Shown one piece after another: positions 370 to 54,447 of a stretch of DNA of 64,000 nucleotides (position 1 is the first letter of the stretch; each line of letters starts with the position of its first letter). The stretch lies in the NCBI RefSeq assembly GCF_016026235.1, contig NZ_CP065613.1. One strand, given 5' to 3'. The DNA comes from Escherichia coli (GTDB lineage Bacteria > Pseudomonadota > Gammaproteobacteria > Enterobacterales > Enterobacteriaceae). Both the position numbers and the translations under genes were made by a program. The notes under the pieces are model-generated. The model had not been told where the DNA came from. It ran no database searches and saw only the letters and a program-made list of their open reading frames with translations.

Positions 370-1470
370 ATGCAAAACTGGATAAAGGCCGCCGTTATCG
401 CCGTAAGCCTGGCGCTGCCCGGCGTGGCGCTGGCACAATCGCTGGAGTCGCTGGTCAACGTACAGGGCGTGCGTGAAAACCAACTGGTCGGCTACAGCCT
501 GGTGGTCGGCCTCGACGGCACCGGTGATAAAAACCAGGTCAAATTCACCAACCAGACCATCACCAATATGCTGCGCCAGTTCGGCGTGCAATTGCCGAAT
601 AAAATCGACCCGAAGGTGAAAAACGTCGCCGCAGTGGCGGTGAGCGCCACGTTGCCGCCGATGTACTCGCGCGGGCAGACCATTGATGTCACCGTCTCGT
701 CGATTGGCGATGCGAAAAGTATTCGCGGCGGCACCTTGTTGCTGACCCAGCTTCACGGCGCGGATGGCGAAGTGTATGCCCTGGCGCAGGGCTGCGTGGT
801 GGTCGGCGGGATGAACGCCACCGGGGCCAGCGGTTCCAGCGTGACGGTTAACACACCGACCGCTGGGTTAATTCCCAACGGCGCGACGGTGGAGCGCGAG
901 ATCCCCAGCGATTTTCAGATGGGCGATACCATCACGCTTAACCTGAAACGCCCGTCATTTAAAGACGCCAACAATATTGCGGCGGCGATTAACGCCTCGT
1001 TTGGCGGCATTGCCACGGCGCAGAGTTCCACCAACGTTACCGTGCGCGCGCCCACCAGCCCCGGCGCGCGGGTGGCGTTTATGTCGCAACTGGATGATGT
1101 GCAGGTGCAGGCGGAGAAAATCCGCGCCCGCGTGGTGTTTAACTCGCGTACCGGTACGGTGGTGATGGGCGATGGCGTTGCGCTACATGCGGCGGCGGTG
1201 TCTCACGGCAGTCTGACCGTCTCGATTAACGAAACCAGCAACGTCAGCCAGCCGAATGCCTTTGCGGGCGGGCGCACGGCGGTAACGCCGCAGAGCAATA
1301 TCGCGGTGAATCATGCGCGCCCGGGCGTGGTGAGTTTGCCGGAGTCGAGCAGCCTGAAAACGCTGGTCAATGCGTTGAACAGTTTGGGCGCGACGCCGGA
1401 CGACATTATGTCGATTTTACAGGCGTTGCATGAAGCGGGCGCACTGGATGCTGACCTGGAGGTGATCTGA
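370..1470 (+). CDS. lfgI: Flagellar P-ring protein (FlgI family), Flag-2 type
   Basis: 371-aa ORF with N-terminal signal peptide ([22 protein letters not shown]) and FlgI-like core; GGAGAG SD before ATG at 370; alternative ATG at 355 overlaps lfgH stop. Confidence 0.85.
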
Positions 1471-1769
1471 TGAAAGTTAACGCCAGCGGCGGGATTGACG
1501 GCAGCGATGCGTTAATGGGGCCGAAGGTTCAGGCCAATGATATCAAGCAGGCCGCGGAGCAGTTTGAGGCGATTTTTTTACGCAACATGCTGAAAGAGAT
1601 GCGTAAAACCAACGAGCTGTTTGATTCGAAAGATAACCCGTTTAACAGCGATTCGGTGCGCATGATGCAGGGGTTTTATGACGATGAGCTGTGTAACACC
1701 CTGGCGCAGCAGCACGGGATCGGGATTGCGGCGATGATTGTGAAGCAGTTGTCGCCGAAGCATAAATGA
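1470..1769 (+). CDS. lfgJ: Short FlgJ-like rod-binding protein (N-terminal domain only, no muramidase domain)
   Basis: 99-aa ORF, ATGA overlap with lfgI stop; motif AAEQFEAIFLRNMLKEMRK resembles FlgJ N-terminal rod-binding domain. Confidence 0.75.
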   Translation: MKVNASGGIDGSDALMGPKVQANDIKQAAEQFEAIFLRNMLKEMRKTNELFDSKDNPFNSDSVRMMQGFYDDELCNTLAQQHGIGIAAMIVKQLSPKHK

Positions 1770-1785
1770 GGTTCCGGCGTTCGGC

Positions 1786-2062
1786 GCACGGTGCCTGATG
1801 CGACGCTGACGCGTCTTATCAGGCCTACGAGTCGCCCGTATGTAGGCCGGATAAGGCGTTCACGCCGCATCCGGCATTTGGTGCACGGTGCCTGATGCGA
1901 CGCTGACGCGTCTTATCAGGCCTACGAATCGCCCGTATGTAGGCCGGATAAGGCGTTCACGCCGCATCCGGCATTTGGTGCACGGTGCCTGATGCGACGC
2001 TGACGCGTCTTATCAGGCCTACGAGTCGCCCGTATGTAGGCCGGATAAGGCGTTCACGCCGC
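1786..2062. repeat. Tandem array of three ~97-bp REP/BIME-type palindromic units
   Basis: Unit beginning GTGCCTGATGCGACGCTGACGCGTCTTATCAGGCCTACGA…GTAGGCCGGATAAGGCGTTCACGCCGCATCCGGCA recurs with 97-bp period at 1791, 1888, 1985; copies differ by a single base. Confidence 0.9.
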
Positions 2063-2097
2063 TTTTAACCGGCACGATTTACCGGTAAGGATCCAAC

Positions 2098-3474
2098 ATG
2101 GACATGATTAACATCGGCTACAGCGGCGCATCAACCGCGCAGGTGGAGCTGAACGTCACGGCGCAAAACACCGCCAACGCCATGACCACGGGCTACACCC
2201 GCCAGGTGGCGGAGATCAGCACCATCGGCGCCAGCGGCGGTTCGCCGAACAGCGCCGGTAACGGCGTGCAGGTCGACAGCATTCGCCGCGTCTCTAACCA
2301 GTATCAGGTGAATCAGGTGTGGTATGCCGCCAGCGATTACGGCTATTACAGCACCCAGCAGGAGTATCTCACGCAACTGGAAGCGGTATTGAGCGACGAT
2401 AACAGCAGCCTGAGCGGCGGGTTCGATAACTTCTTCGCCGCCCTTAACGAAGCGACCACCAGCCCTGATGATTCCGCCCTGCGCGAGCAGGTGATCAGCG
2501 AAGCCGGGGCGCTGTCGTTGCGTATCGATAACACACTCGATTACGTCGACTCGCAAAGCACGGAAATCATCAGCCAGCAGCAGGCGATGGTGTCGCAAAT
2601 CAATACGCTCACCAGCGGCATCGCCAGCTATAACAAGCAAATCGCCCAGGCCGAAGCCAACGGTGATAACGCCTCTGCGCTGTACGACGCCCGCGATCAG
2701 ATGGTGGAAGAACTCAGCGGGATGATGGATGTGCAGGTTAATATCTACGACCAGGGCAACTACAACGTCACGCTGAAAAATGGTCAGCCGCTGGTGAGCG
2801 GGCAGCAAAGTTCGACCATCGCGCTGGAAACCAACGCCGATGGCACGCCGACCATGTCGCTGACCTTCGCTGGCACTACCTCGACGATGACCACCGACAC
2901 CGGCGGTTCATTAGGCGCACTGTTTGATTATCAAAACGACGTCCTGACGCCGCTGACCGACACCATCAACAGCATGGCGTCGCAGTTTGCCGATGCGGTC
3001 AACAACCAGCTGGCGCAGGGCTACGATCTCAATGGTAACTCCGGCGAGCCGCTGTTTATCTATGACGCCAGCAACGCCGATGGCCCGCTGACCGTTAACC
3101 CGGTTATCACCGCCGATGAGCTGGCGTTTTCCAGTTCACCGGACGAAAGCGGCAACAGCGACAACCTCCAGGCGCTGATCAACATCTCCACCGAACCGCT
3201 GGAGATCGACAATCTTGGCAGCGTGACGGTCGGGCAGGCGTGCTCGTCAATCATCAGCAATATCGGCATCTACAGTCAGCAAAACCAGACGGAAGTCGAT
3301 GCTGCGTCCAATGTCTATTCCGAAGCGCAAAACCAGCAGAGCAGCGTCAGCGGCGTTAGCATGGACGAAGAAGCGGTGAACCTGATCACCTATCAACAAA
3401 TTTATGAAGCCAATCTGAAAGTCATTTCCGCCGGGGCCGAGATTTTCGATTCGGTGCTGGAAATGTGCAGCTAA
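2098..3474 (+). CDS. lfgK: Flagellar hook-associated protein 1 (FlgK family)
   Basis: 458-aa ORF; FlgK-like N-terminus (MDMINIGYSGASTAQVELNVTAQN…) and C-terminus (…ITYQQIYEANLKVISAGAEIFDSVLEM); AAGGA SD upstream. Confidence 0.85.
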   Translation: MDMINIGYSGASTAQVELNVTAQNTANAMTTGYTRQVAEISTIGASGGSPNSAGNGVQVDSIRRVSNQYQVNQVWYAASDYGYYSTQQEYLTQLEAVLSDDNSSLSGGFDNFFAALNEATTSPDDSALREQVISEAGALSLRIDNTLDYVDSQSTEIISQQQAMVSQINTLTSGIASYNKQIAQAEANGDNASALYDARDQMVEELSGMMDVQVNIYDQGNYNVTLKNGQPLVSGQQSSTIALETNADGTPTMSLTFAGTTSTMTTDTGGSLGALFDYQNDVLTPLTDTINSMASQFADAVNNQLAQGYDLNGNSGEPLFIYDASNADGPLTVNPVITADELAFSSSPDESGNSDNLQALINISTEPLEIDNLGSVTVGQACSSIISNIGIYSQQNQTEVDAASNVYSEAQNQQSSVSGVSMDEEAVNLITYQQIYEANLKVISAGAEIFDSVLEMCS

Positions 3475-3488
3475 GCGGGAGCGCGAAA

Positions 3489-4418
3489 ATGCGAGTAACC
3501 ACCCAACAAACCTACGTCTCGATGACGCAAAGTTTTAATAATCTCTCCGGCGATCTGGCGCACGTGGTCGAGCAGATGGCAACCGGTAAGCAGATTTTGC
3601 AGCCGTCGGATGACCCGATCGCCGCCACGCGCATCACCCAGTTAAACCGCCAGCAGTCGGCGATTGAACAGTATCAGAGCAATATCGACTCCGCGTCGGC
3701 GGGGTTAAGCCAGCAGGAATCGATTCTCGATGGCGTCAACAACAGCCTGCTGGCGGTGCGCGACGACCTACTGGAAGCGGCGAACGGCACCAATACCGCC
3801 GATTCGCTCGCAAGCCTCGGCCAGGATATTGAGACGCTCACCGAATCGATGGTCGCGGCGCTGAACTATCAGGATGAAGACGGGCACTACGTGTTTGGCG
3901 GCACCATCAACGATCAGCCGCCGATTGTGGCAGTGGACGATGATGGCGATGGTGTCACCGACAGCTATAGCTACCAGGGCAACAGCGACCACCGCCAGAC
4001 CACCGTATCGAACGGCGTGGAAGTGGATACCAACGTGGCGGCGAGCGATTTCTTCGGCAGCAATTTAGACGTGCTCAACACGCTCAATTCGCTCTCGCAG
4101 GAGTTGCAAAACCCCAACGTTGACCCGGCAGATCCGCAGGTGCAGAGTGATATTCAGAACGCCGTTGATGTGGTGGACACCGCCTCGGACGACCTCAACG
4201 CCTCGATTGCGTCACTCGGCGAGACGCAGAACACCATGTCGATGTTGAGCGATGCGCAGACCGATATCTCTACCTCTAATGATGAGTTGATTGGTTCATT
4301 ACAGGATCTCGATTACGGCCCGGCGTCGATCACCTTTACCGGACTGGAAGTGGCAATGGAAGCTACCCTCAAGACTTACTCGAAGGTGAGTGAGTTGAAT
4401 TTGTTCAGCGTTCTCTAA
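3489..4418 (+). CDS. lfgL: Flagellar hook-associated protein 3 (FlgL family)
   Basis: ORF 3465-4418; GGGAG SD precedes internal ATG at 3489 (MRVTTQQTYVSMTQ…); flagellin-like N/C termini typical of FlgL. Confidence 0.8.
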   Translation: MRVTTQQTYVSMTQSFNNLSGDLAHVVEQMATGKQILQPSDDPIAATRITQLNRQQSAIEQYQSNIDSASAGLSQQESILDGVNNSLLAVRDDLLEAANGTNTADSLASLGQDIETLTESMVAALNYQDEDGHYVFGGTINDQPPIVAVDDDGDGVTDSYSYQGNSDHRQTTVSNGVEVDTNVAASDFFGSNLDVLNTLNSLSQELQNPNVDPADPQVQSDIQNAVDVVDTASDDLNASIASLGETQNTMSMLSDAQTDISTSNDELIGSLQDLDYGPASITFTGLEVAMEATLKTYSKVSELNLFSVL

Positions 4419-4434
4419 CTCTTTCAGGAACAGT

Positions 4435-5412
4435 ATGCAGGTCGGACTTACTTCTTCGTCACTCGCCACCGGCGGCGCGCACAGCGCTGCGGTATCGTCG
4501 TCAACCGTTGCGCCCACTCAGGCGGTGCGGCAAAAGCTCCCGGTGACGGCGAGTGAATATCCGGCCTCGCCGCTGATTACCACTCGCCCGCAGCGTTACA
4601 GCGTGCAGCTTAACGACCAGCTCACCACGTTGCAGCAGGCGGATCACTACCTCGGGCAACTGGAGCAGCAGTTGCTCGATTATCGTCATAGCCAGCGTAA
4701 GGGCGGGCAGGCGCAGAGTTCGGCGCTGATGCAGATGCTGGACAAACGCACCGCGCTTTCCGGCGGCGCGGTGGACCGCCAGTTACAGCCGGTGTTGCAG
4801 GGTGAAGCGCGGGTGACCTTTCACTCACCAGATCTGGCAAATCTGGTACACAATTCCACGCCGGGAACGCGTATGTTCAGCGTCTCTGACGGGCGACAGA
4901 CGCAGCTTTCGGCGGTAATGCTATCTGATGATGACAACGCCGGGCAGTATCAGACGCGGCTGACCAACGCCCTGCGCCGCGTGGGCGTGCAGCTACATCA
5001 GCAAGCGGATGGCATCAGTTTCTCCACCACTGAAAAACAGTGGCCCCATATCGAGCGCACCTTAAGCGTGCGTACCGATGGCGATAAATCAGCATTTATG
5101 CCGCTGAAAACCTTTGCTGAGCCGTCACAGGCGGACCGCTTAGCGCAAAGCCTGCAACAGGGCGGGGCGGGGATTTCTCAAATGCTGGAAAACATTAATC
5201 AGCAGCGCGCGCAGATGGCGGTGCAGCAGGAAAAAGCCCGCCAATTGATCGACGGCATGTCCCGCTTCCCGCAAACGGAAAATGCGGTGCAGGCATCGGA
5301 AAACCTCGGCGGCGTACTCGACAGCGCCAATCATAACTATCAGGTGTTATTGCAGGCGGTGAACGGCCAGGCGCGAATTTCCAGCCAGACGGTGAGGAAT
5401 TTATTGGGGTAG
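4435..5412 (+). CDS. lafW: Flag-2 locus protein LafW-like (Gln/Ala-rich, uncertain function)
   Basis: 325-aa ORF directly downstream of lfgL with AGGAACAG SD; assignment by position in laf gene order, not by recognisable motif. Confidence 0.55.
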   Translation: MQVGLTSSSLATGGAHSAAVSSSTVAPTQAVRQKLPVTASEYPASPLITTRPQRYSVQLNDQLTTLQQADHYLGQLEQQLLDYRHSQRKGGQAQSSALMQMLDKRTALSGGAVDRQLQPVLQGEARVTFHSPDLANLVHNSTPGTRMFSVSDGRQTQLSAVMLSDDDNAGQYQTRLTNALRRVGVQLHQQADGISFSTTEKQWPHIERTLSVRTDGDKSAFMPLKTFAEPSQADRLAQSLQQGGAGISQMLENINQQRAQMAVQQEKARQLIDGMSRFPQTENAVQASENLGGVLDSANHNYQVLLQAVNGQARISSQTVRNLLG

Positions 5413-5662
5413 GGTTATTGAAAATCAAACAAATGAGGCTGTCGCAAAAAATCATTTCAGTGCAGAATATGCTATAAATCTGCGGGTTAAAAAGGAATGA
5501 AATGGCCACTCTCAAGCAACTGATGGATAAGCAAAGCCCCGAAAGTCGTAGGCGAATAATTAAAAAAACAGAACGAATCCGGCAAACTATAATTAACAAA
5601 AAATTAGAGTTACCAATAACTACAACTATCAGTAATTCCGATTGATTTCATTCGGAATTTTC

Positions 5663-5702
5663 GTAGGCCGGATAAGACGCGTTTAGCGTCGCATCCGGCA
5701 TT
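5663..5702. repeat. REP palindromic unit
   Basis: GTAGGCCGGATAAGACGCGTTTAGCGTCGCATCCGGCA between convergent genes. Confidence 0.8.
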
Positions 5703-5714
5703 TATTAGCGCTCA

Positions 5715-6557
5715 TCAGCATTTCTGCACAGTATTTAACAACTTCTCTAAATTCTGGTACATCGCGCTATTAATATCACTATTCTGCCAGCCTTCCACAT
5801 TAAACGTTAATTGCCAGCTACCATTGCACTGGTTGCGCAGAACAATATCACTTTCCAGTCGGTTGCGAACATATTTATAATAGGTTGTCATTGTCATATT
5901 ATGCGCTGACAATAAATTATCGAGTTTGTCTTTCCCTGGTGCGAGGGTTTGTGAAAGTAACGGTGCGGAATTATTTTCTTTTCCAGAACTAAGATGAAAT
6001 ATTTTTATTCTTGGACTATTAACGGATTCTTTTACCAGCTGCGGGGCGTCAGGTGTATTTTTTAAGTGTGAATAACCCACGGTCGAGCCAATAAATATAA
6101 CAGCCGCGGTCAAGGCTAACCCCATCAGTCCTTTATGTTTTTTTCTAACAGGCACAGGCGGTGTTGTCGAAGATATCTCTTCTGGCGCTGTTTCTTTTAT
6201 CTGGTCGGTAATAATCAGCGCTTCCGCAGGCGATGACTCCGGCAAAGACACATACTCTTTATTGCATAAGTAACCTTTCTTCGGAATTGTTTTAATAATG
6301 TTCTGTTGTTTGCCATCATCGTCGATAGCAACGCGCAACGCATGAATCGCCGTCGGCAGGCTGTTACCGCCGACAATGCGGTTCTTCCATACTTCGGCAC
6401 ATAAATAAGATCGCGATAAAACTACATCGGCATTTTTTGCTAATGTTTCCAGCAAAATAAAATGGTATTCGCCGAGACGACGTGTTTCACCCGTTTCGCA
6501 ATGTATTAAGGCATTAAGCGACGGGTCCATCCGCCAGTTGTTGATAATAATACTCAT
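5715..6557 (-). CDS. lafZ: ToxR/CadC-like transmembrane transcriptional regulator (N-terminal winged-helix OmpR-type DNA-binding domain, one TM segment, periplasmic C-domain)
   Basis: Translation has OmpR/PhoB-type wHTH region (…LETLAKNADVVLSRSYLCAEVWKNRIVGGNSLPTAIHALRVAI…IKTIPKKGYLC) followed by hydrophobic segment GLMGLALTAAVIFIGSTVGY; ORF extends to 6614 but ATG at 6557 (MSIIINN) is the more likely start. Confidence 0.7.
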   Translation of the reverse strand: MSIIINNWRMDPSLNALIHCETGETRRLGEYHFILLETLAKNADVVLSRSYLCAEVWKNRIVGGNSLPTAIHALRVAIDDDGKQQNIIKTIPKKGYLCNKEYVSLPESSPAEALIITDQIKETAPEEISSTTPPVPVRKKHKGLMGLALTAAVIFIGSTVGYSHLKNTPDAPQLVKESVNSPRIKIFHLSSGKENNSAPLLSQTLAPGKDKLDNLLSAHNMTMTTYYKYVRNRLESDIVLRNQCNGSWQLTFNVEGWQNSDINSAMYQNLEKLLNTVQKC

Positions 6558-6970
6558 AGTTGAGTTTACCTTAGCAAGGGATAAATGTTCCTGATAGTGC
6601 TTTGCATAAAGCACAGTCTTATACGTCCCTGAGAAGATGATTTTTCTGCGTGATAATTAATATTTTATGGTAATAGGATTATTCTTAATCACTATATGGC
6701 GTGGAAATGTAACGAAATGACAGGACAGGTACAATAGCCAAATGTGTACTATTTGCAACGCAATGTAAATTTTGGCATCAGTACATTGAGAAGAAAACGC
6801 ATTAATTGATGGTAATCTTAACTATATCAAGCGTTTGATAAAGACATATTTTGATACCTGGCCATGTGGCAGATATTGCTAATAATCTTTTTATCTGAAT
6901 TTAAACTCTGCTTTTTTTTAGCTAAAAGTGGCATCAGATAATACGTAGCGAAAATTTTTTCATAGCGATT

Positions 6971-6997
6971 TTAAGTTTGCTCCTGAGGTGTCGTTTT
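6971..6997 (+). promoter_or_regulatory. Candidate sigma-28 (FliA/LafS-type) promoter upstream of lafA
   Basis: TTAAGTTT (7/8 to TAAAGTTT) -N11- GTCGTTTT (weak match to GCCGATAA), ~45 bp upstream of lafA ATG. Confidence 0.3.
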
Positions 6998-7042
6998 TAC
7001 AGGGTATCGAAACGAAAACGATTAATCCCAAGGAGCAGTATC

Positions 7043-7957
7043 ATGTTATCTATTAACACCAATAACGCCTCAATGGCCGCCGTTAATGCAATCAGCAAAA
7101 GCAGCTCTTCTCTGTCTACATCTATGGAACGCCTGGCGACAGGTAACCGGATTAACTCTTCTGCCGATGACGCCGCAGGCAAACAAATTGCTAACCGTCT
7201 GACTGCACAGTCCAGCGGTATGGGCGTGGCGCTGAGCAACATCAATGATGCCACCGCGATGCTGCAAACCGCTGACAGCATGTTCGACGAAATGTCTGAC
7301 GTGCTGGGCCGTATGAAAGACCTGTCAACTCAGGCAGCGAACGGCACCTACAGCGACGACGATCTGCAGGCGATGCAGGACGAATACGACGAACTGGGTC
7401 AGCAGATGTCTGACATGCTGCAAAATACCACTTACGGCGGTACCAACCTGTTCGGTGTTTCCGGTACCAGCAACACCGGTACTGACGGTCTGTTCCAGAG
7501 CGCGGTAACTTTCCAGGTGGGCGCGGAATCTTCCGACACCATGACCGTGAATATTTCAAGCCAGCTGAATACCCTGGTGACGGATCTTTCTGCTATCAGC
7601 AACTCCTTCAGTGCGGATCAGGCAGACACCACGGGTACTGCAGGCGTGTCTGGCGGTACTGAGCTGACTGCGTCTGGCTCGGCTAACCAGATGATCACCA
7701 GCATTTCTACCGCGATGGATGACGTGTCGCAGATCCAGTCCAAACTGGGTGCGTCTATTAACCGTCTGAACGACACTGCCAACAACCTGACCAGCATGCA
7801 GGACAACACCGAAGTCGCTATCGGTAACATCATGGATACCGACTACGCGACGGAAGCGTCCAACATGACCAAACAGCAGGTGCTGATGCAAACCGGCATC
7901 ACCATGCTGAAACAGTCCAACAGCATGTCCAGCATGGTTTCCAGCCTGCTGCAGTAA
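7043..7957 (+). CDS. lafA: Lateral flagellin
   Basis: 305-aa product with flagellin N-terminus (MLSINTNNASMAAVNAISKSSSSLSTSMERLATGNRINSSADDAAG) and C-terminus (…TKQQVLMQTGITMLKQSNSMSSMVSSLLQ); AAGGAG SD at 7030-7035. Confidence 0.9.
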   Translation: MLSINTNNASMAAVNAISKSSSSLSTSMERLATGNRINSSADDAAGKQIANRLTAQSSGMGVALSNINDATAMLQTADSMFDEMSDVLGRMKDLSTQAANGTYSDDDLQAMQDEYDELGQQMSDMLQNTTYGGTNLFGVSGTSNTGTDGLFQSAVTFQVGAESSDTMTVNISSQLNTLVTDLSAISNSFSADQADTTGTAGVSGGTELTASGSANQMITSISTAMDDVSQIQSKLGASINRLNDTANNLTSMQDNTEVAIGNIMDTDYATEASNMTKQQVLMQTGITMLKQSNSMSSMVSSLLQ

Positions 7958-7960
7958 TGG

Positions 7961-7999
7961 CGGACTTGCCGGATGCGGCGTAAACGCCTTATTCGGCCT
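7961..7999. repeat. REP palindromic unit downstream of lafA
   Basis: GCCGGATGCGGCGTAAACGCCTTATTCGGCCTAC. Confidence 0.75.
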
Positions 8000-8003
8000 A
8001 CGA

Positions 8004-8037
8004 ACAACACCGCCTGCGGGCGGTGTTGTGCTTTCTG
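8004..8037 (+). terminator. Rho-independent terminator after lafA
   Basis: Stem ACAACACCGCC / GGCGGTGTTGT with 4-nt loop, followed by GCTTTCT. Confidence 0.75.
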
Positions 8038-8109
8038 CGGCAGGCTTTTTTCCGCCAGACCGGAAACGCCATTTCCGCCAGTTTTTCAATCTATTGATTA
8101 TTCACATAA

Positions 8110-8137
8110 AAAATATTGGCACGCCTTTTGCCAATAA
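8110..8137 (+). promoter_or_regulatory. Candidate sigma-28-type promoter upstream of lafB
   Basis: GCCAATAA at 8130-8137 (7/8 to -10 consensus GCCGATAA), 27 bp upstream of lafB ATG; -35 match weak. Confidence 0.3.
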
Positions 8138-8163
8138 CCTGACATCGTTACCCGGAGTCATCA

Positions 8164-9480
8164 ATGATCAACCCAAGAACCATTGCGCAAGAAATCGCGT
8201 ATGCGGATGTTGCCACTCAGGCGGCAAACTTGCAGGAAAAGCAAACGGAGCTGGATGCCGAAAGCAGCGGCCTGGACTCGCTCAGCTCAGCGTTGAGCGA
8301 TTTCCAGAGCGCCGTCGACGCGCTGAACAGCGATACCGACGGCCCGGTGACTTTTGCCGCCACCAGCAATAATGACTCGGCGACTGTTTCCGCTAACTCG
8401 CAGGCGCAGGCGGGAAGCTACTCATTTTTCGTTGAGCAACTGGCGCAGGGGCAGCAAACCACGTTCAGTATGGGCGACGACGCCTTTTCCGCCACCGGCA
8501 CTTTTGAACTGACGATGGGCGACAGCACCATGGATATCGATCTGTCTGCGGCAGATCAGAACGGTGACGGCGACGGTTATATCGACGCCAGCGAGCTGGT
8601 GAGCGCGATTAACGACTCCGACGATAATCCGGGCGTTTCAGCGGCACTGGTAAAAACCGACGGCACCACCACGATAATGTTCACCTCGGATAGCACCGGG
8701 GCGCAGAGCGCGTTTTCGGTGAGCGTAACGGGGCATGACGCCAGCAACGATAGCACCAGCGCGCCCGTTGCCACGGATGTTTCCTCAGCCCAGGACGCGA
8801 TTATTCATCTCGGCAGCGCCACGGGGCCAGCCATCACCAACAGCAGCAACACTTTTGATGATGTGATCCCCGGCGTCACCATGACCTTTAGCGAAGTCAG
8901 CGACTCTGACAGCGATCTCACCACCTTTAACATTAGCGAAGATTCCAGCGCCACCGAAGACAAAGTGCAGACCTTTGTCGATGCCTATAACACGCTGATT
9001 GATACCGTCGATTCACTGACCACCAGCGGCAGCGACAGTACCAGCGCCGGGGTTTTTGCCGGAGATGCGGGACTCAGCTCACTGGCAAACCAGCTCGATG
9101 ACATCGCCCACGCCAGCTACAACGGCGAGTCGATTGTCGATTACGGCATTACGCTCGACTCCAATGGCCATTTGCAGATCGACTCTGATCAGTTCAACGA
9201 CGCGATGAAAAGTGACCCTGACGGTCTGACCTCTATTTTCGTTGGCGACAACAGCATGGTGGCGCAGATGGACGACCTGATTAACACCTACACGGACTCC
9301 AGCAACGGCATCATCACCCTGCGCCAGCAGAACATTGACGATCAGATGAGCAAAATTCAGGACGAAGGCGATCAGCTTACCGATACCTATAACGCCAACT
9401 ACGACCGTTATCTCGAGGAGTACACCAACACGCTGGTCGAGGTGTACACCATGAAAGCCAGCATGGCGGCATTCGCGTAA
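8164..9480 (+). CDS. lafB: Flagellar filament cap protein (FliD family)
   Basis: 438-aa ORF following flagellin; Ser/Thr/Asp-rich central region, FliD-like termini. Confidence 0.75.
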   Translation: MINPRTIAQEIAYADVATQAANLQEKQTELDAESSGLDSLSSALSDFQSAVDALNSDTDGPVTFAATSNNDSATVSANSQAQAGSYSFFVEQLAQGQQTTFSMGDDAFSATGTFELTMGDSTMDIDLSAADQNGDGDGYIDASELVSAINDSDDNPGVSAALVKTDGTTTIMFTSDSTGAQSAFSVSVTGHDASNDSTSAPVATDVSSAQDAIIHLGSATGPAITNSSNTFDDVIPGVTMTFSEVSDSDSDLTTFNISEDSSATEDKVQTFVDAYNTLIDTVDSLTTSGSDSTSAGVFAGDAGLSSLANQLDDIAHASYNGESIVDYGITLDSNGHLQIDSDQFNDAMKSDPDGLTSIFVGDNSMVAQMDDLINTYTDSSNGIITLRQQNIDDQMSKIQDEGDQLTDTYNANYDRYLEEYTNTLVEVYTMKASMAAFA

Positions 9481-9502
9481 CTCAGAAGGAATATCCCTAA
9501 AG

Positions 9503-9895
9503 ATGTACCAAGTACAGGACGGCTATTCACAATATAAAGAGATCGATCTCGCGGCGCGTACTGCGGCGGCATCGCCTCTGGAACTGGTGCTGGTGCTGTT
9601 TTCTGGCCTGATGGACGAGCTGGAACGCGCCAAAAGCCATATTGAAGGGCGGCGTTTCGAGAAGAAAGCCCAGAGCATCAATAAATGCATCGACATTCTC
9701 AATGCGCTCACCAGTTCGCTGGAGTTTGAAACTGGCGGCGAGCTGGTGGTCAACCTTTCGCGACTCTATGACCACTGCGTTTACCGATTGTATGAGGCCA
9801 GCGGCGAACTGTCGGCAGAGAAAATCGATGAAGTGATGCTGATCTTAAGCAACCTGCGCGAAGGCTGGGAAGGGCTTTCGGGCAAGCTGGGTTAA
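9503..9895 (+). CDS. lafC: Flagellin export chaperone (FliS family)
   Basis: 130-aa ORF; FliS-like helical protein in expected position. Confidence 0.75.
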   Translation: MYQVQDGYSQYKEIDLAARTAAASPLELVLVLFSGLMDELERAKSHIEGRRFEKKAQSINKCIDILNALTSSLEFETGGELVVNLSRLYDHCVYRLYEASGELSAEKIDEVMLILSNLREGWEGLSGKLG

Positions 9896-9899
9896 GACG

Positions 9900-24803: not shown

Positions 24804-25214
24804 TTAAGCCAATTGCTGCCGCCATTCCTTGACGTGGTCAATCAGGGCGCGGAGCTTTGGTGCAATATTGCGACGCTGTGGGAAATACAGATAGAAGCCC
24901 GGAAATTGTGGAAGAAAGTCATCAAGCAGAGATACAAGCCTACCGCTTTCAATATATGGCCTGAAAGTTTCCTGAGTGGCAATTGTTATTCCTCCGCCGG
25001 CAAGAGCCAGCCTCAACATCAGACGCAGATCATTAGTCGTAATCTGTGGTTCAATCGCAAGGTCGAAAGTTCTCCCGTTTTCTTCAAATGGCCAGCGATA
25101 AGGCGCAACCTCCGGGGACTGACGCCAGCCGATACACTTATGGGTATTTCCCCCGGAGGTGAGAAAGCGCTTTCCACGCCCGGCCGCAAGGATCAGGACG
25201 ACGGGGGCAGGCAT
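24804..25214 (-). pseudogene. yagP: LysR-family regulator, C-terminal fragment only (no HTH domain)
   Basis: 136-aa ORF ending with typical LysR C-terminus (…FPGFYLYFPQRRNIAPKLRALIDHVKEWRQQLA); DNA-binding N-terminal half absent. Confidence 0.7.
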
Positions 25215-26150
25215 GAATCCTCCTCCTGATGGAGACGTACAGAGGCGACTTCTGCCAGCACGGAGAGTGCCAGAGTATGCGCATCCCGGGCTTTGGGGAA
25301 TATCCCGACGGGTGCCCGAATTTGCGCTGTCTCCTCCCTGGACCATCCCAGCTCGTGGAGCTTTTGCAGACGTAACGTGTGGGTTCGATAGCTGCCCAAT
25401 GCGCCGAGATAAAAGGGTTTTGCTTCTCGCGCGGCCTGCAACACTGGCAGCTCCCGGTTGAGATCATGGCACAGCAAAATGACCGCCGTATCGGTATCGA
25501 TCTGAGCGCTGGCTGAGGCCGGAAAAAGATCGAAGATATGGCTGTCATAGCCTGTGGCTGCTGCAAGACTCGCGGTTGCCTGCGCCTCAAGAGAACGTCC
25601 GTAAATCATCAGCCTGACGCATGGCCTGAACCCCACCTCAAAGCCATTGAGATTCCAGCCACGTTCGGGTTTGCGTGGGCAGGCACACCAACGATTGTGC
25701 TTGCGGATCGTAGCGCAGCCCCGCCGGTTTTCTCTGTTCCAGGCGGTTCAGCACGGCGAGCAGAGGCTGTGCCGAGCGTAGTTTATGGAGCGTCAGCGTG
25801 ATCCCACCGCCGCAGGGCAGAACGATGTCAAACCACGGCGAACCTTCGCCATAGCGAATTTCGCGATCGCAGCCTGAGCCCATCATCTCCAGCGCTTCAA
25901 AAGCGGCAGCGGCCTCCACGCAGCCGCCAGAGACAAAACCGCAGTAACGACCATCTTCGCGCACCACCATCTGCGCCCCGAGCGGGCGCGCCGCGCCGCC
26001 GCGTATCTCCACCAGCGTCACCAGCACCGCTCCTTTACCGGACATTAGCGCCTCTACGGCGAAGCGCAGAATGGTCCGGTGGTCATCGGTGAGAAACGCC
26101 TGCTCTGGCTTATGCCAGTGTTCGTCTTTATCAAAAAGCGGGTATGACAT
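25193..26150 (-). pseudogene. paoD: XdhC-family molybdenum-cofactor insertion chaperone, split by a frameshift
   Basis: Two abutting minus-strand ORFs in different frames (26150-25638 N-domain; 25636-25193 C-domain starting RLMIYGRSLEAQ…) that together span an XdhC-like protein. Confidence 0.7.
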
Positions 26151-32628: not shown

Positions 32629-34240
32629 GAATCTCTCCTGAAGCGCTGACTTCGCCAAACCAGCCGTTATCATCTACCGTACGCAGAGAAATGGCGTTAT
32701 CCATTGGAATCGAAAATTTGACTGTGGTCTTATCCATCTGCCCCACTTCGCCAGAGATATCAGTCCACGGTGTGGTCAACCACAGCGCATCGGTCATATC
32801 CCGCCAGCTATCATCGCACCCGGCATCGTAGGTTTTTGTAGCTCCGTTGCGGGTAATAAAGGAAAGTGTCGCCGGGAACGGTACTTTCGCCTTACCGTCA
32901 TCGGAGCTGAAGACACAATAGGAGCGCCCGCCAATCACCTGCGCGGGTCCGGTCACCTTGATCAGCACTTCGTCGGCAGCTGTTTTACCGCTGGTGGTTA
33001 CGATATAGCCGAAATCGAGTGCCGACTCGCCGCTGCCAACATATCCCTCCCGCGACGGTGTCTGAGTATATTCATCGGAGATAATACTGATGCTGAAATC
33101 ACGGGGTTTGATAATCAGCGTGTTGGAGGTAGAAAATTCATACCAGCCAGACTCCGGTGATGTGGTGTTCTGAAAGCGAAAGTTGAATAGATCTTTGGTG
33201 TTGATATCGCTGATCCCGAGGTTCACCATCTGCTTAAAGAAGTTGCTCGAGAAGAAAACATAGATCGAGTCTGCGCTCTTCATCTCGTTGAAGGTGTAGT
33301 AATAGGCAGTATTGCTCACCGGTTTCCATGAACTGCCATTCAGACTGAACTGCATATCGTACGCCCCGACGGCCGAGGCTAACGACGAGTTGGCGATCGC
33401 CGGGAATATATGGATTGAGGTGTTGCTGAGTCCGTTTGTTTGCAGGGTATAGTTAACCATCTTACAACTTAATCCTGAACGGCTGCCGATGGTTTGCGTC
33501 CGGCAGTCGGCGTTCCCTTCGCCCAGAGTCGGTACTCCGTCGCTGTTGATAAATACTTCCGCCAGCGAGTGGGTATTTATCAACCGTAGATTTGCTGCTT
33601 TCGTATGGGTGACGTTGCGAACATACCAGTTGCCGGAGGCCTGATCCTTACAGCGTGCGCCGCTGCTGGCGTCATAGTTCACAGAGGTCTGGCAGGCATT
33701 GATGGTCATTGTAAAGCTGCTGCCGACGGGCATTTGTTGCAGATACTGGTAAAACGCGTCTGACAACATGCCGTGCATCCACTTCGCGCCGCCGCTGGTC
33801 ACCGTCGCGCCATAAAATCCACTGGCGTCGGTGGTTTGCGGCAGGATAAGACTGGTGGTCATATTACACCCAGCGTACCAGTTGATGCAGCGCAAGCCAG
33901 TTAAAGGAGATGAAACTGGTGAATTTTCCAGCCACATATCAAACTTCCAGTTGGTATAAAGGCCGGTGTTGTAACCGTTATCAATGTAGCCGAGGCTTTG
34001 CTGATAGATGGTTCCTGAACCATTGTATTTTAAACCGGTCCAGCGGTTGGCACCGGTCAGGCGCGGATCCAGCGCCCCGCCAGGAGTGACGAAAAAGTTG
34101 TCGTCTGAGTTGTTTTCGACAAACACAAACTCGCGTGCCGGTGCATCCGCCCAGGTTGTTTTGCTCACTGCAGCTCTGAGCGCGGTTGCAGGCCAGATTA
34201 GCGCAAAGATTATCATCGCTATCAGTAGGTTAACTCTCAT
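32597..34240 (-). CDS. ecpD: E. coli common pilus tip adhesin EcpD
   Basis: 547-aa secreted ORF in ecp order. Confidence 0.85.
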
Positions 34241-41136: not shown

Positions 41137-42279
41137 TTAATCCATTAACGGAAACCAGCCAGTTCCTTTCGATGCCTGAATTTGATCCCATAGTTTATCC
41201 GGAATGGTTAATTCAGGAACAAGTTGTGGATTAAGGGTTGTTTGAATTTCATGGCCTCTACCTGATTCAGCTAAAGTCACCCATTCTGGATTTATCACCA
41301 GCCCTTTACCGATCGCAACAAGTGGCAGGCCAGTGGAGATTGCTTCTTGAGCCTGAGACGGTGTGCGTATTTTACCTGCAGCGATTACCGGCACTCTGCC
41401 TGCAATATGATTTAAAATCAATTCAATAGTTCGGGGGCCATTTGGCGACTCAACAGGGTAGCTTTCGTTAATACTGACCAGCGAGGTATGTATATACGAA
41501 ATACCGGATGAAATGAGCCGATCAAGGAGTTTATAAGTATCCTCTATCCGCAGTCCCCCTGTTGCAGATTCTTCAGGAGATATTCTGTAACCGATGGCAA
41601 AGGGCTTTGTCGCATATTCATAGACTACATTTTTTACTTCCTGTAATACGGCCAGCGGGAAGCTCATACGTCCTTCGAGATCTCCTCCCCATCGGTCATT
41701 ACGCTGGTTAAATAGAGGGGAGAAGAAATTCTGTAGAAGGAATCCGTGCGCACCATGAAGTTCAATGCCATCAAAACCTGCTTTAATCGCCCTTTTTGTG
41801 ACATCTCCGAATGCTCTAATGGTTTCCTGAATTTCGTTTTCAGTCATTTCCCTGCTTTGTACCACTCTCTTCATAAAGTCACCAGTTTTTACGCTTGATG
41901 CGCTGGCACTAATAACATCGTTATTTGGTACAAGCTCCGGGATGGCTTTATTACCGGCGTGGAAAATCTGCAAAATAGCCGGAGCACCCCCACTTTGGGC
42001 TGCCGCTGCTAACTTTTCAAGGCTGTTAATGAAACGGTCGTCATACGCGGCAAATTCATGAGTAAACCCAATGCCGCTTGGCGTGACATAGGTACATCCT
42101 GTTATTACTAAACCAACATTTTGTGAGCGGCGTTTATAAAATTCGAGTTCTTGCTCAGAGATGGTTCCATCAGGATTCGCTGACCAGGTCGTCATAGGAG
42201 CCATAACGATACGATTACGTAGCTTTATTTTTTCTGTCAGCATAAAAGGAGAAAACAATGATGGGTGTTTATTTGTCAT
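41137..42279 (-). CDS. Old-yellow-enzyme family NADH:flavin oxidoreductase / ene-reductase
   Basis: 380-aa ORF with OYE TIM-barrel signatures (…LQIFHAGNKA… ; …GIELHGAHGFLLQNFFSP…). Confidence 0.8.
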   Translation of the reverse strand: MTNKHPSLFSPFMLTEKIKLRNRIVMAPMTTWSANPDGTISEQELEFYKRRSQNVGLVITGCTYVTPSGIGFTHEFAAYDDRFINSLEKLAAAAQSGGAPAILQIFHAGNKAIPELVPNNDVISASASSVKTGDFMKRVVQSREMTENEIQETIRAFGDVTKRAIKAGFDGIELHGAHGFLLQNFFSPLFNQRNDRWGGDLEGRMSFPLAVLQEVKNVVYEYATKPFAIGYRISPEESATGGLRIEDTYKLLDRLISSGISYIHTSLVSINESYPVESPNGPRTIELILNHIAGRVPVIAAGKIRTPSQAQEAISTGLPLVAIGKGLVINPEWVTLAESGRGHEIQTTLNPQLVPELTIPDKLWDQIQASKGTGWFPLMD

Positions 42280-42522: not shown

Positions 42523-43443
42523 TTACAAATGTGTTTTATAAAAAGGAATTAATTTATCGAGTGCCTGTTTCACAGGTTCTGGCTTATCATACAGGTCGTA
42601 ATGTGAATAACCTTCAACCACGACCAGCTCTTTATGTTTTGAGGCAGCGCGGCCAATAATTTCGCAGCCGTCACGGTAGGCACCAAATGCGCCCACTCTA
42701 TCGCCCACCACAACCATTATTGGTTGAGTTAACAGGACTTCTGCAAGATGAAATGCATCCCAACCCACGGCAACAGTCTGATGTGAGAATAGCGAACGAT
42801 TTACCCCATTAGGTGCATAGCCTCGTGGCGAACGATAATATTCTGTGGCTTCAAAAAGGTCTATTTCTGTTAATCCCGCTTCAAGAGCTGCATCCGGAGA
42901 AGAGGGGAGTAAATCATCTACGCGAAGTTTTGCGCCGTTAGCTTCGTCTGTTCTTTGTTGCGCCATTGCTTCGAGTGCTCCGATAGGATTAAACGCTGTA
43001 AATCCCTCACGCATAAGACGCCCGTAGTTTGCACCCGTGACAGTACCAATAGCTTTAATTCGACGTTCTGTCATTGCGGCATTAATGGCATATCCACCTC
43101 CACCACAAATACCCAGTACACCAATACGCCCGGCATCAACGTAAGGTAAGCTGGTAAGGTAATCAACGACAATGCTGAAGTCTTTTACTCGCATTGTTGG
43201 ATCTTCCAGATAACGCGGTTCTCCACCGCTGCTTCCCTGAAAACTGGCATCAAAAGCAATGACGATAAAGCCAGCTTTTGCCAGGGCGGCACCATACACA
43301 CTACCCGATGTCTGTTCTTTGCAGCTTCCAATTGGATGGGCGCTGATAATGGCAGGATACTTTTTTTCACTATTAAAATCGTCAGGGAAATAGATATCAG
43401 CAGCTATATCCCAGTAAGTGTGTTTTATCGAAACAGTTTTCAT
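42523..43443 (-). CDS. Alpha/beta-fold hydrolase (dienelactone-hydrolase-like)
   Basis: 306-aa ORF with nucleophile-elbow-like GICGGGG and conserved His near C-terminus. Confidence 0.7.
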   Translation of the reverse strand: MKTVSIKHTYWDIAADIYFPDDFNSEKKYPAIISAHPIGSCKEQTSGSVYGAALAKAGFIVIAFDASFQGSSGGEPRYLEDPTMRVKDFSIVVDYLTSLPYVDAGRIGVLGICGGGGYAINAAMTERRIKAIGTVTGANYGRLMREGFTAFNPIGALEAMAQQRTDEANGAKLRVDDLLPSSPDAALEAGLTEIDLFEATEYYRSPRGYAPNGVNRSLFSHQTVAVGWDAFHLAEVLLTQPIMVVVGDRVGAFGAYRDGCEIIGRAASKHKELVVVEGYSHYDLYDKPEPVKQALDKLIPFYKTHL

Positions 43444-43599
43444 TTCAAGCTCCGGGGATTTGCCTAAACAGATTTAAATATCATTTCTATTATCCGCAAC
43501 TGGCATTTGTGTTCATATCGAGAACGGCGTAATAGTATGACTTGTATTGGTTATCATCAATGGTCTAATATCTATCACAGTGTTAAGTTAAGGTTTACA

Positions 43600-44524
43600 A
43601 TGATGAAAATAGAGCCTTCAATTTTGCCTTCTCTTGCCTGGTTTGCGCTGATTGTTCGTGCCGGCAGTTTTTCCAGAGCCGCTTCTGAAATGGGTATTAC
43701 GCGGGCCGCATTGTCCCAGAATTTAAAATCTCTTGAGGAACGTCTTAACACCAAGCTGATATACCGTACGACCCGCAATATGTCGCTTACTGAGGAAGGA
43801 CTGCGTCTGTATGAAGTGCTGGTGTCGGCTTTGGGGCAAATTGATGATGCTTTGAAAGATGTTGGTGATACCCAACTTGAACCTACAGGCCTGTTGAGAA
43901 TAAATTCCTCCCGTGTTGCAGCACGGATGCTTGTTGAGCCTCATATTGGCGAGTTTCTTACTCGTTACCCCAAAACAAAGATAGAACTCATTATGGATGA
44001 CGGTTTATCTAACATTATTGCGGACGGCTGTGATGTGGGCATACGTCTTGAGCAAGGACTGGATGAGCATATGACTGCCGTTCCTGTTTCTCCGCTTATT
44101 AAACTGGTTACTGTGGCATCGCCAGATTATTTAAAAGAACACGGTATTCCTGAAACGCCTCAGGAACTGAGTAACCATAATTGCCTTCGGTTGCGGCATA
44201 AAAGTAGCGGTGCACTCTCTGCATGGGAGTTTTCTAATGTTGCGGGCGGGAATGAAGAGTTCGAAATAGAGGTTTCAGGTAAGTATATTTCTAATGATGA
44301 CGAAAGCATGATACGAATGGCGCTGAATGGAACGGGTATCATTCAACATCTGGATTTTGCAATCGCTGAACATATCAATGCGGCAAGTTACAGCCGATTC
44401 TTGAGGATTGGGCTGTTTCATTTCCTGGGTTTTATATTTATGTTTCATCACGGGTGAGAATGCCCTCTAAAGTTCGTGCTTTTATTGATTTTATGGTGGA
44501 GAAAAGAGTAAAACTCGAAAATTG
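43600..44524 (+). pseudogene. LysR-family transcriptional regulator with a frameshift near the C-terminus
   Basis: HTH start MMKIEPSILPSLAWFALIVRAGSFSRAASEMGIT; the track ORF ends at 44457 in non-LysR sequence, while the canonical LysR C-terminus (GKLQPILEDWAVSFPGFYIYVSS…KVRAFIDFMVEKR) is encoded in another frame from ~44382 to 44524. Confidence 0.7.
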
Positions 44525-44674
44525 ATGATATGTGTCAGAATATCGGTAAGAAGAATGGCGCAATCGTGAGAATACGTTTATTCATAATAAATATCCTGAA
44601 AGTTTAGAATTATTTTCGATACAGCCAGATTATCATTGTTACTAATAATGTGGTTAAAATAATAGCATCTATGA

Positions 44675-47611
<2,937 letters not shown>

Positions 47612-53562: not shown

Positions 53563-54447
53563 ATGGAGGGACTGACAGTGGAATTTTCCGTATTAAGTAA
53601 CAATCTGAAAATGCCGATGATGGGATTTGGTGTTTTTCAGGTTACCGATAAAAACGTGTGCAAACAGTCAGTGTTGAACGCTATCCGCACGGGGTATCGA
53701 CTCATCGACACTGCAGCGGTATACGGTAATGAAGATGCTGTCGGTGAAGCCGTTCGTGAAGCCATATCCGAAGGTTTATGTACCCGAGAAGAGTTATTTA
53801 TAACGTCTAAATTGTGGGTGCAGGATATGTTGAATCAGGATACGGCAGCAGCAGGTATTGAAGCATCATTAAAAAAATCGGGACTAGAATACTTCGACCT
53901 CTATTTATTGCATCAGGCTATGCGCGATTATTTCAGTGCGTGGCGTGCACTCGAAGATGCCTATGAAGAGGGCAAATTAAAAGCGATTGGGGTTTCCAAT
54001 TTCTATCCTCATGTTCTGGCGAACTTTTGTGAAACGGTAAGAGTTAAACCGATGGTCAACTAGGTCGAGTTGCATCCCTATTTTGCCCAACCAGAGGCGC
54101 TGGCAACCATGAAGTATTATAACGTGCAGCCTGAAGCATGGGCTCCGTTAGGTGGTGGACGACATAAACCCTTTGAAAATAATCTGCTTCAGAGTATTGC
54201 AGATGCCCATCAAAAATCGATTTTTCAAGTCATTCTGCGTTGGAATATTCAACGGGGAGTGGTCGTTATTCCGAAATCGACACATCAACAGCGTATCGAA
54301 GAAAATTTCGCTATCTGGGATTTCTCACTGACAGAGAAAGAAATGGCACAAATTAGTTCGCTTGATTTGGGTTATGTTGGGGAGTCGGTAAAACATTTTA
54401 ATCCTGAATTTGTTCGTGGTTGTCTTGCTGTAAAAATACATGATTGA
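53563..54447 (+). pseudogene. Aldo-keto reductase interrupted by an in-frame amber codon
   Basis: Two same-frame ORFs (53563-54063, 54070-54447) separated only by TAG at 54061-54063; translation reads …PMVN*VELHPYF… where AKRs have NQVE(x)HP. Confidence 0.75.

Follow-up and report, generated by a model that had tools for sequence, protein, structure and literature searches.

A 1-nt deletion in an accessory LysR-type regulator gene of Escherichia coli, designated here LysR1, is a real inherited allele fixed in one clonal lineage of the species. It is highly probable that the frameshift is real and at the same time causes a loss of function. Judged by its sequence, LysR1 appears to be an ordinary pseudogene specific to this lineage, although an altered allele is possible. 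The gene was analyzed in a stretch of 64,000 nt from contig NZ_CP065613.1 (RefSeq assembly GCF_016026235.1), which is referred to throughout as the window.

Reading frames and site of the deletion in LysR1

The gene, the mutation site and the remnant of the original frame are located in the window as follows.

43600 to 44457, plus strand: LysR1, frameshifted LysR-type regulator gene with a 285-aa product; start codon according to the RefSeq annotation of the ortholog
44382 to 44383, plus strand: mutation site, GG versus GGG in the intact alleles, one G lost
44382 to 44524, plus strand: out-of-frame remnant encoding the native C-terminus, G262 to N308 and TGA

The open reading frame of LysR1 begins with the ATG at 43600, encodes 285 aa and ends with the stop codon at 44455 to 44457. 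The first-pass annotation had described this frame as a normal LysR up to about 44381, and residues 1 to 261 are indeed native, with zero amino acid differences, and LysR-like through ...DFAIAEHINA (Ala261). The continuation of the annotated frame as non-LysR sequence with a stop at 44457 was likewise borne out, and residues 262 to 285 form a 24-residue hydrophobic and aromatic out-of-frame tail, ASYSRFLRIGLFHFLGFIFMFHHG*, which resembles nothing. The LysR C-terminus, which had been claimed to lie in the shifted frame through 44524, was found there, the native residues being read from 44382 as GKLQPILEDWAVSFPGFYIYVSSRVRMPSKVRAFIDFMVEKRVKLEN (GKLQPILEDW...VEKRVKLEN) up to the stop codon at 44522 to 44524.

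A 1-nt deletion had been suggested near AATGCGGCAAG, and alignment with the intact gene of E. coli AHM8C212RI located it at 44382 to 44383, where one G is missing from GGG. The two sequences showed a single difference in 242 alignment columns, GCGGGC in the intact gene and GCGGC in the window, by which codon 262 is changed from GGC (Gly) to GCA and all downstream codons are out of frame. The intact ortholog, annotated in both AHM8C212RI and NCTC9112, encodes 308 aa in one continuous frame across the site. The DNA of the 3' remnant is identical to the intact allele of AHM8C212RI and free of further decay, which fits a recent event and does not prove that the gene is dispensable.

Distribution of the allele

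The region 43450 to 44600 was present in 2,213 of the 5,426 complete E. coli genomes searched by megablast; the best matches shared 99.6% identity with the query and exceeded it by one base. An 80-nt probe centered on the deletion matched 2,104 complete E. coli genomes, none of them at 100%, and the matches listed span 81 nt. A 40-nt probe centered on the deletion, which seeds a megablast hit only where the deletion is present, did not detect it in any of the 5,426 complete genomes, and the deleted version was found in no species-representative genome in a scan of the GTDB representatives. Alignment to orthologs, proposed in the first-pass annotation as a check, thus recovered the GGG and the 308-aa frame in about 2,100 complete E. 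coli genomes and the aberrant C-terminus in none outside the lineage. Sharing of the allele by other E. coli was rejected on the results of both probes and of the GTDB representatives. The clone that carries the deletion is itself absent from the 5,426 complete RefSeq E. coli genomes, among which the best identities over 25 kb were 98.7% (39 to 64 kb of the window) and about 97% (1 to 25 kb).

The exact 285-aa product corresponds to the public protein STL99477.1, described as 'putative LysR-like transcriptional regulator [Escherichia coli]'. This protein was counted on 18 contigs in public protein collections, the longest of 4.56 Mb, and in the gene-position index it was represented by 30 blocks, with at least 24 contigs encoding it. 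The contigs originate from different runs and assemblies, including ERR3331069, SRR5330898, SRR13627086, GCA_902503985.1 and the 4.56-Mb NCBI contig, whose STL accession prefix may point to a long-read NCTC project. A length of only 4.56 Mb for the longest contig with the allele is small for E. coli. Independent sequence, which had been named as able to restore the frame, did not restore it, the lesion being reproduced in all of these at least 24 independently assembled contigs.

Outside the site, the contigs differ little from the window. Contig L004 (SRR13627086; the same contig in six samples) was 100% identical to positions 33600 to 54457 (20,858 bp), contig L003 differed by 2 SNPs in 6.9 kb, contig L005 by 3 SNPs and an 11-bp deletion in 14.4 kb, and contig L006 by 5 SNPs and a 9-bp indel in 14.4 kb. 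The deletion is thus common to isolates that are separate yet close relatives, and represents an allele inherited within a clone, neither a base-calling error nor a phase-variable tract.

The possibility that a homopolymer miscall dropped the G and that LysR1 is really intact is accordingly very improbable. The site is a short run of G and the longest record with the 285-aa product is a 4.56-Mb single contig, but errors do not typically concentrate in runs of three bases, and the truncated product recurs on contigs from independent runs and assemblies that differ elsewhere by few SNPs and indels. The second 1-nt frameshift of the window, located in paoD, was also reproduced in at least 24 independent contigs. 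With the independent assemblies, a sequencing error at LysR1 was rejected and is effectively refuted. Even more remote is the restoration of full-length LysR1 in part of the population by programmed recoding or phase variation, that is by ribosomal frameshifting, transcriptional slippage or a reversible tract length. Such a process would be suited to a mutation in a homopolymeric G tract with a fully kept downstream frame; however, the frame would have to be recovered by a -1 shift at U GCG GCA, a sequence without the X XXY YYZ pattern of a slippery heptamer, and a run of only GG or GGG is much too short to slip. Within each group the run is moreover invariant (GG in all lineage contigs examined, GGG in some 2,100 genomes outside the lineage), and the sole terminator-like hairpin downstream (44394 to 44411) is a weak consensus match. 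Both a programmed frameshift and a phase-variable tract were rejected on sequence context and tract invariance.

Identity and relatives of LysR1

From its sequence, LysR1 is best described as an accessory, uncharacterized CrgA/AphB-like LysR-type regulator (LTTR). The winged-HTH domain typical of LTTRs was recognized in the intact and in the truncated protein alike by Pfam HTH_1 (PF00126; residues 11 to 67, 68 bits versus a cut-off of 26.6), and in intact LysR1 the LysR_substrate domain (PF03466) matched residues 94 to 301, corresponding to positions 3 to 206 of the 209-position profile. The best NCBIfam model was YafC (NF040888), with an E value of 3.6e-56 and a full-length alignment over residues 12 to 302, and by this model LysR1 falls into a common LTTR subgroup with YafC and its relatives TtdR, AaeR and GcvA. 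LysR1 was not accepted as YafC itself because its score of 190 bits is far under the equivalog cut-off of 470 bits. The cut-off of a curated equivalog family was not reached by LysR1, the second LysR-family regulator of the island (LysR2), the hydrolase, the OYE or the reductases. At E ≤ 1e-30, 2,005 relatives of LysR1 were found among 1.84 billion cluster representatives, and the closest was only 53% identical. The literature search found no paper on this regulator, the matches to fdeC with LysR concerning LeuO or unrelated genes, and nothing specific on the run and assembly accessions that carry the allele.

The closest solved structures by sequence were CrgA of Neisseria meningitidis (3HHG), 3MZ1 and AphB. 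CrgA was the best sequence match among them, with an E value of 1.5e-37 over residues 12 to 302, and its 3HHG structure was also a top fold match (Foldseek E value 5e-25) that has its two-domain layout in common with intact LysR1. The identity is only about 30%, LysR1 has the hydrolase and the OYE flavin reductase as presumed targets in place of mdaB, and the window allele lacks the segment equivalent to CrgA residues 251 to 299. AphB of Vibrio cholerae and V. vulnificus (3SZP, 3T1B, 5FHK) was the best fold match to the intact model (Foldseek E value 2e-25, TM 0.66 to 0.70), with a sequence match at an E value of 5e-28 and 26% identity; according to its PDB entry it is a virulence activator, whereas nothing ties the E. 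coli LysR1 to virulence. The AlphaFold model of intact LysR1, built on 100 relatives, had a pLDDT of 94.3 and a pTM of 0.79. A full-length LTTR fold, with AphB and CrgA as the top Foldseek matches at E values of about 1e-25, was found for the intact ortholog only.

Segment removed by the frameshift

In LysR1, the 47 conserved residues at the end give way to 24 unrelated ones. The LysR_substrate match in the window product ends at residue 260 and covers positions 3 to 165 of 209, short of a complete regulatory domain, and since the match in the intact protein extends over positions 3 to 206, the replacement of the C-terminus is not a matter of chance. What remains is the winged-HTH with the linker helix and the greater part of the regulatory domain. 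Because its product has no complete regulatory domain, the gene is an LTTR gene by descent and the product is not a complete LTTR.

Conservation was measured on 100 relatives with 30 to 52% identity to intact LysR1. The mean frequency of the top residue was 0.57 for residues 262 to 301, compared with 0.58 in the HTH and 0.49 in the remaining regulatory domain, so by this measure the lost segment equals the DNA-binding domain in its conservation within the family. Several of the lost residues are highly conserved, namely, G262 (89%), L264 (94%), L268 (95%), G277 (84%) and Y281 (94%). In the AlphaFold model of the intact protein, the strands 265 to 267, 273 to 275 and 278 to 282 and the helix 290 to 307 all lie after the break.

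In the HMMER alignment, G262 of LysR1 pairs with G251 of CrgA. According to the CrgA structure paper (PMC2724274), RD-II comprises residues 163 to 264 and RD-I residues 89 to 162 together with 265 to 299. Two strands, beta6 and beta13, pass from one subdomain to the other, helix alpha11 lies against the sheet of RD-I, and F268 is part of the lining of the effector pocket. With these domain bounds and the pairing of G262 with G251, LysR1 loses the end of RD-II and the second crossover strand, and by the same alignment also the last strand and the helix of RD-I and the pocket residue aligned with F268. The frameshift thus removes sequence that is both conserved and structurally required.

Accessory island and presumed targets

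LysR1 belongs to a block of six accessory genes that lies between ykgR and fdeC in about 40% of E. coli and comprises the OYE flavin reductase, the alpha/beta hydrolase, LysR1, LysR2 and two aldo/keto reductases. Its immediate surroundings comprise the following features.

41137 to 42279, minus strand: OYE-family NADH-dependent flavin oxidoreductase, 380 aa, downstream of the hydrolase, intact; presumed target
42523 to 43443, minus strand: alpha/beta hydrolase, 306 aa, divergent from LysR1, intact, 0 nt differences from AHM8C212RI; presumed target
43444 to 43599, no strand: divergent LysR1/hydrolase intergenic region, 156 bp; presumed promoter/operator region
44726 to 45619, plus strand: LysR2, intact LysR-family regulator, 297 aa, 200 bp downstream of LysR1; paralog of the YafC/CrgA-like group

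The island genes adjoining LysR1 are all intact in the window, and the divergent orientation of LysR1 relative to the hydrolase/OYE pair, noted in the first-pass annotation, is present. Divergent arrangement with the target is typical of LTTRs, and the hydrolase/OYE pair is presumed to be the target of LysR1 only from this arrangement. No convincing T-N11-A operator was found in the AT-rich 156-bp intergenic region. The dyads there are weak, for example ATGAC-N11-ATCAT with one mismatch, and judged by eye do not exceed chance level, and the promoter-like hexamers there are likewise weak and at chance level.

Functional consequences

C-terminal truncations of LTTRs generally abolish oligomerization and activation. 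From the sequence and the structural model we infer, with good support, that LysR1 is altered or inactive, as had been proposed, since the frameshift takes away a conserved segment that is integral to the structure. The deletion of one G (GGG to GG at 44382 to 44383) shifts the frame after Ala261 and, going by the established LTTR architecture, would leave a regulatory domain unable to fold properly, to oligomerize or to form the RD-RD interface, and hence an inactive protein. CrgA represses its own gene and activates the divergent redox gene mdaB (PMC2724274). By analogy, the divergent hydrolase-OYE pair would lose its effector-dependent activation and the LysR1 promoter its autorepression, and effector-responsive control of the intact hydrolase/OYE pair is likely lost. 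The untouched DNA-binding domain and linker helix leave room for residual DNA binding, which the truncated protein may retain.

An activity that is changed and not lost, in which truncated LysR1 dimerizes and binds its operator as an effector-blind repressor or autorepressor, or acts as a dominant-negative partner, is unlikely. It would draw on the unchanged residues 1 to 261, without amino acid differences, on the N-terminal interface, which in CrgA is formed mainly by the linker helices (PMC2724274), and on the retention of an unchanged allele in a clone with measurable internal diversity. Such short-term retention is, however, equally expected of a neutral pseudogene, the crossover strand and core elements of RD-I are lost, and the 24-residue aromatic and hydrophobic tail is expected to cause misfolding or proteolysis. 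Loss of function by an ordinary frameshift fits what is seen in lineage-specific pseudogenes of E. coli accessory genes, where a single-base indel in a short homopolymer leads to a premature stop and intact orthologs exist elsewhere. LysR1 is alike in these respects, damage of this kind is also seen in paoD, AKR3 and ykgL nearby in the window, and nothing sets LysR1 apart from this class.

Other lesions in the window

Comparison of 62 reference CDSs with the window yielded 58 with a counterpart. In addition to LysR1, three genes were disrupted, namely, paoD, the third aldo/keto reductase gene (AKR3) and a ykgL-like ORF; the second aldo/keto reductase gene (AKR2) is listed with them.

25193 to 26150, minus strand: paoD, Moco insertion chaperone of the PaoABC aldehyde oxidoreductase; 1-nt insertion of T versus NCTC9112, giving ORFs of 170 aa and 138 aa
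39535 to 39725, plus strand: ykgL-like small ORF; 1-nt deletion versus NCTC9112
46667 to 47518, minus strand: AKR2, second aldo/keto reductase; intact in the window
53578 to 54447, plus strand: AKR3, third aldo/keto reductase; CAG to TAG at 54061, stop codon at 54061 to 54063, Q162* versus the intact 289-aa gene of NCTC9112

Since the 170-aa fragment of PaoD is encoded on at least 24 independent contigs, this lesion is real and lineage-wide. AKR3, which lies between the AraC-family gene and rclC, carries a lesion for which an 80-nt site probe had no match at 100% in any of the 2,948 complete genomes with the region. The ykgL gene is annotated as 'frameshifted' in AHM8C212RI too, and the ykgL-like ORF may be a recurrent or unstable small ORF. 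Within the lineage, contigs L002 and L005 (ERR3331069, GCA_902503985.1) have the 11-bp deletion near the 3' end of AKR2, at about 46696, which gives 277 aa versus 283. On contig L006 (SRR5330898), the 9-bp indel lies in ecpB, within about 3191 to 3850 of the contig, and EcpB has 219 aa versus 222.

The LysR1 frameshift is therefore one of several private lesions of the clone, and three to four lesions among 58 genes are somewhat high and not remarkable. Their functional similarity may be a coincidence, as the region is rich in redox genes. It is quite doubtful that the lesions in LysR1, paoD, AKR3 and, in a sub-lineage, AKR2, which lie within 30 kb, would mark relaxed or reversed selection on carbonyl, aldehyde and electrophile detoxification in a particular niche of the clone and not random decay, or that the truncated LysR1 would act as an effector-blind repressor silencing the hydrolase/OYE pair.

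Several features elsewhere in the window were also recorded. The Flag-2 (lateral flagella) gene set at 370 to 14282, with flgI, flgK, flgL, lafA, fliD, fliS, fliK, fliL, a sigma factor gene, motA and lafU, looks complete; its identity to the closest complete genome is only 93 to 99%. At 5715 to 6614, a winged-HTH gene is open in the window and frameshifted in strain TB06051. The toxin-antitoxin pair yafN-yafO, which in the reference separates dinB from yafP, is missing from the window, and dinB (14353 to 15408) directly overlaps yafP (15405 to 15857) at 15405 to 15408. Between the proA side and paoD, a remnant ORF at 24804 to 25346 on the minus strand has a LysR_substrate domain only, its N-terminus missing; the annotation of TB06051 includes an incomplete LysR substrate-binding fragment on the proA/tRNA-Thr side.

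Significance

The lesion in LysR1 matters little beyond annotation and is unsurprising to a specialist. The record STL99477.1 presents LysR1 as a normal 285-aa regulator, whereas the gene should be annotated as a pseudogene with a frameshift. As a diagnostic marker, the loss of the single G cleanly identifies one E. coli clone, and for the study of the uncharacterized OYE/hydrolase/LysR island this lineage is a natural regulator mutant.
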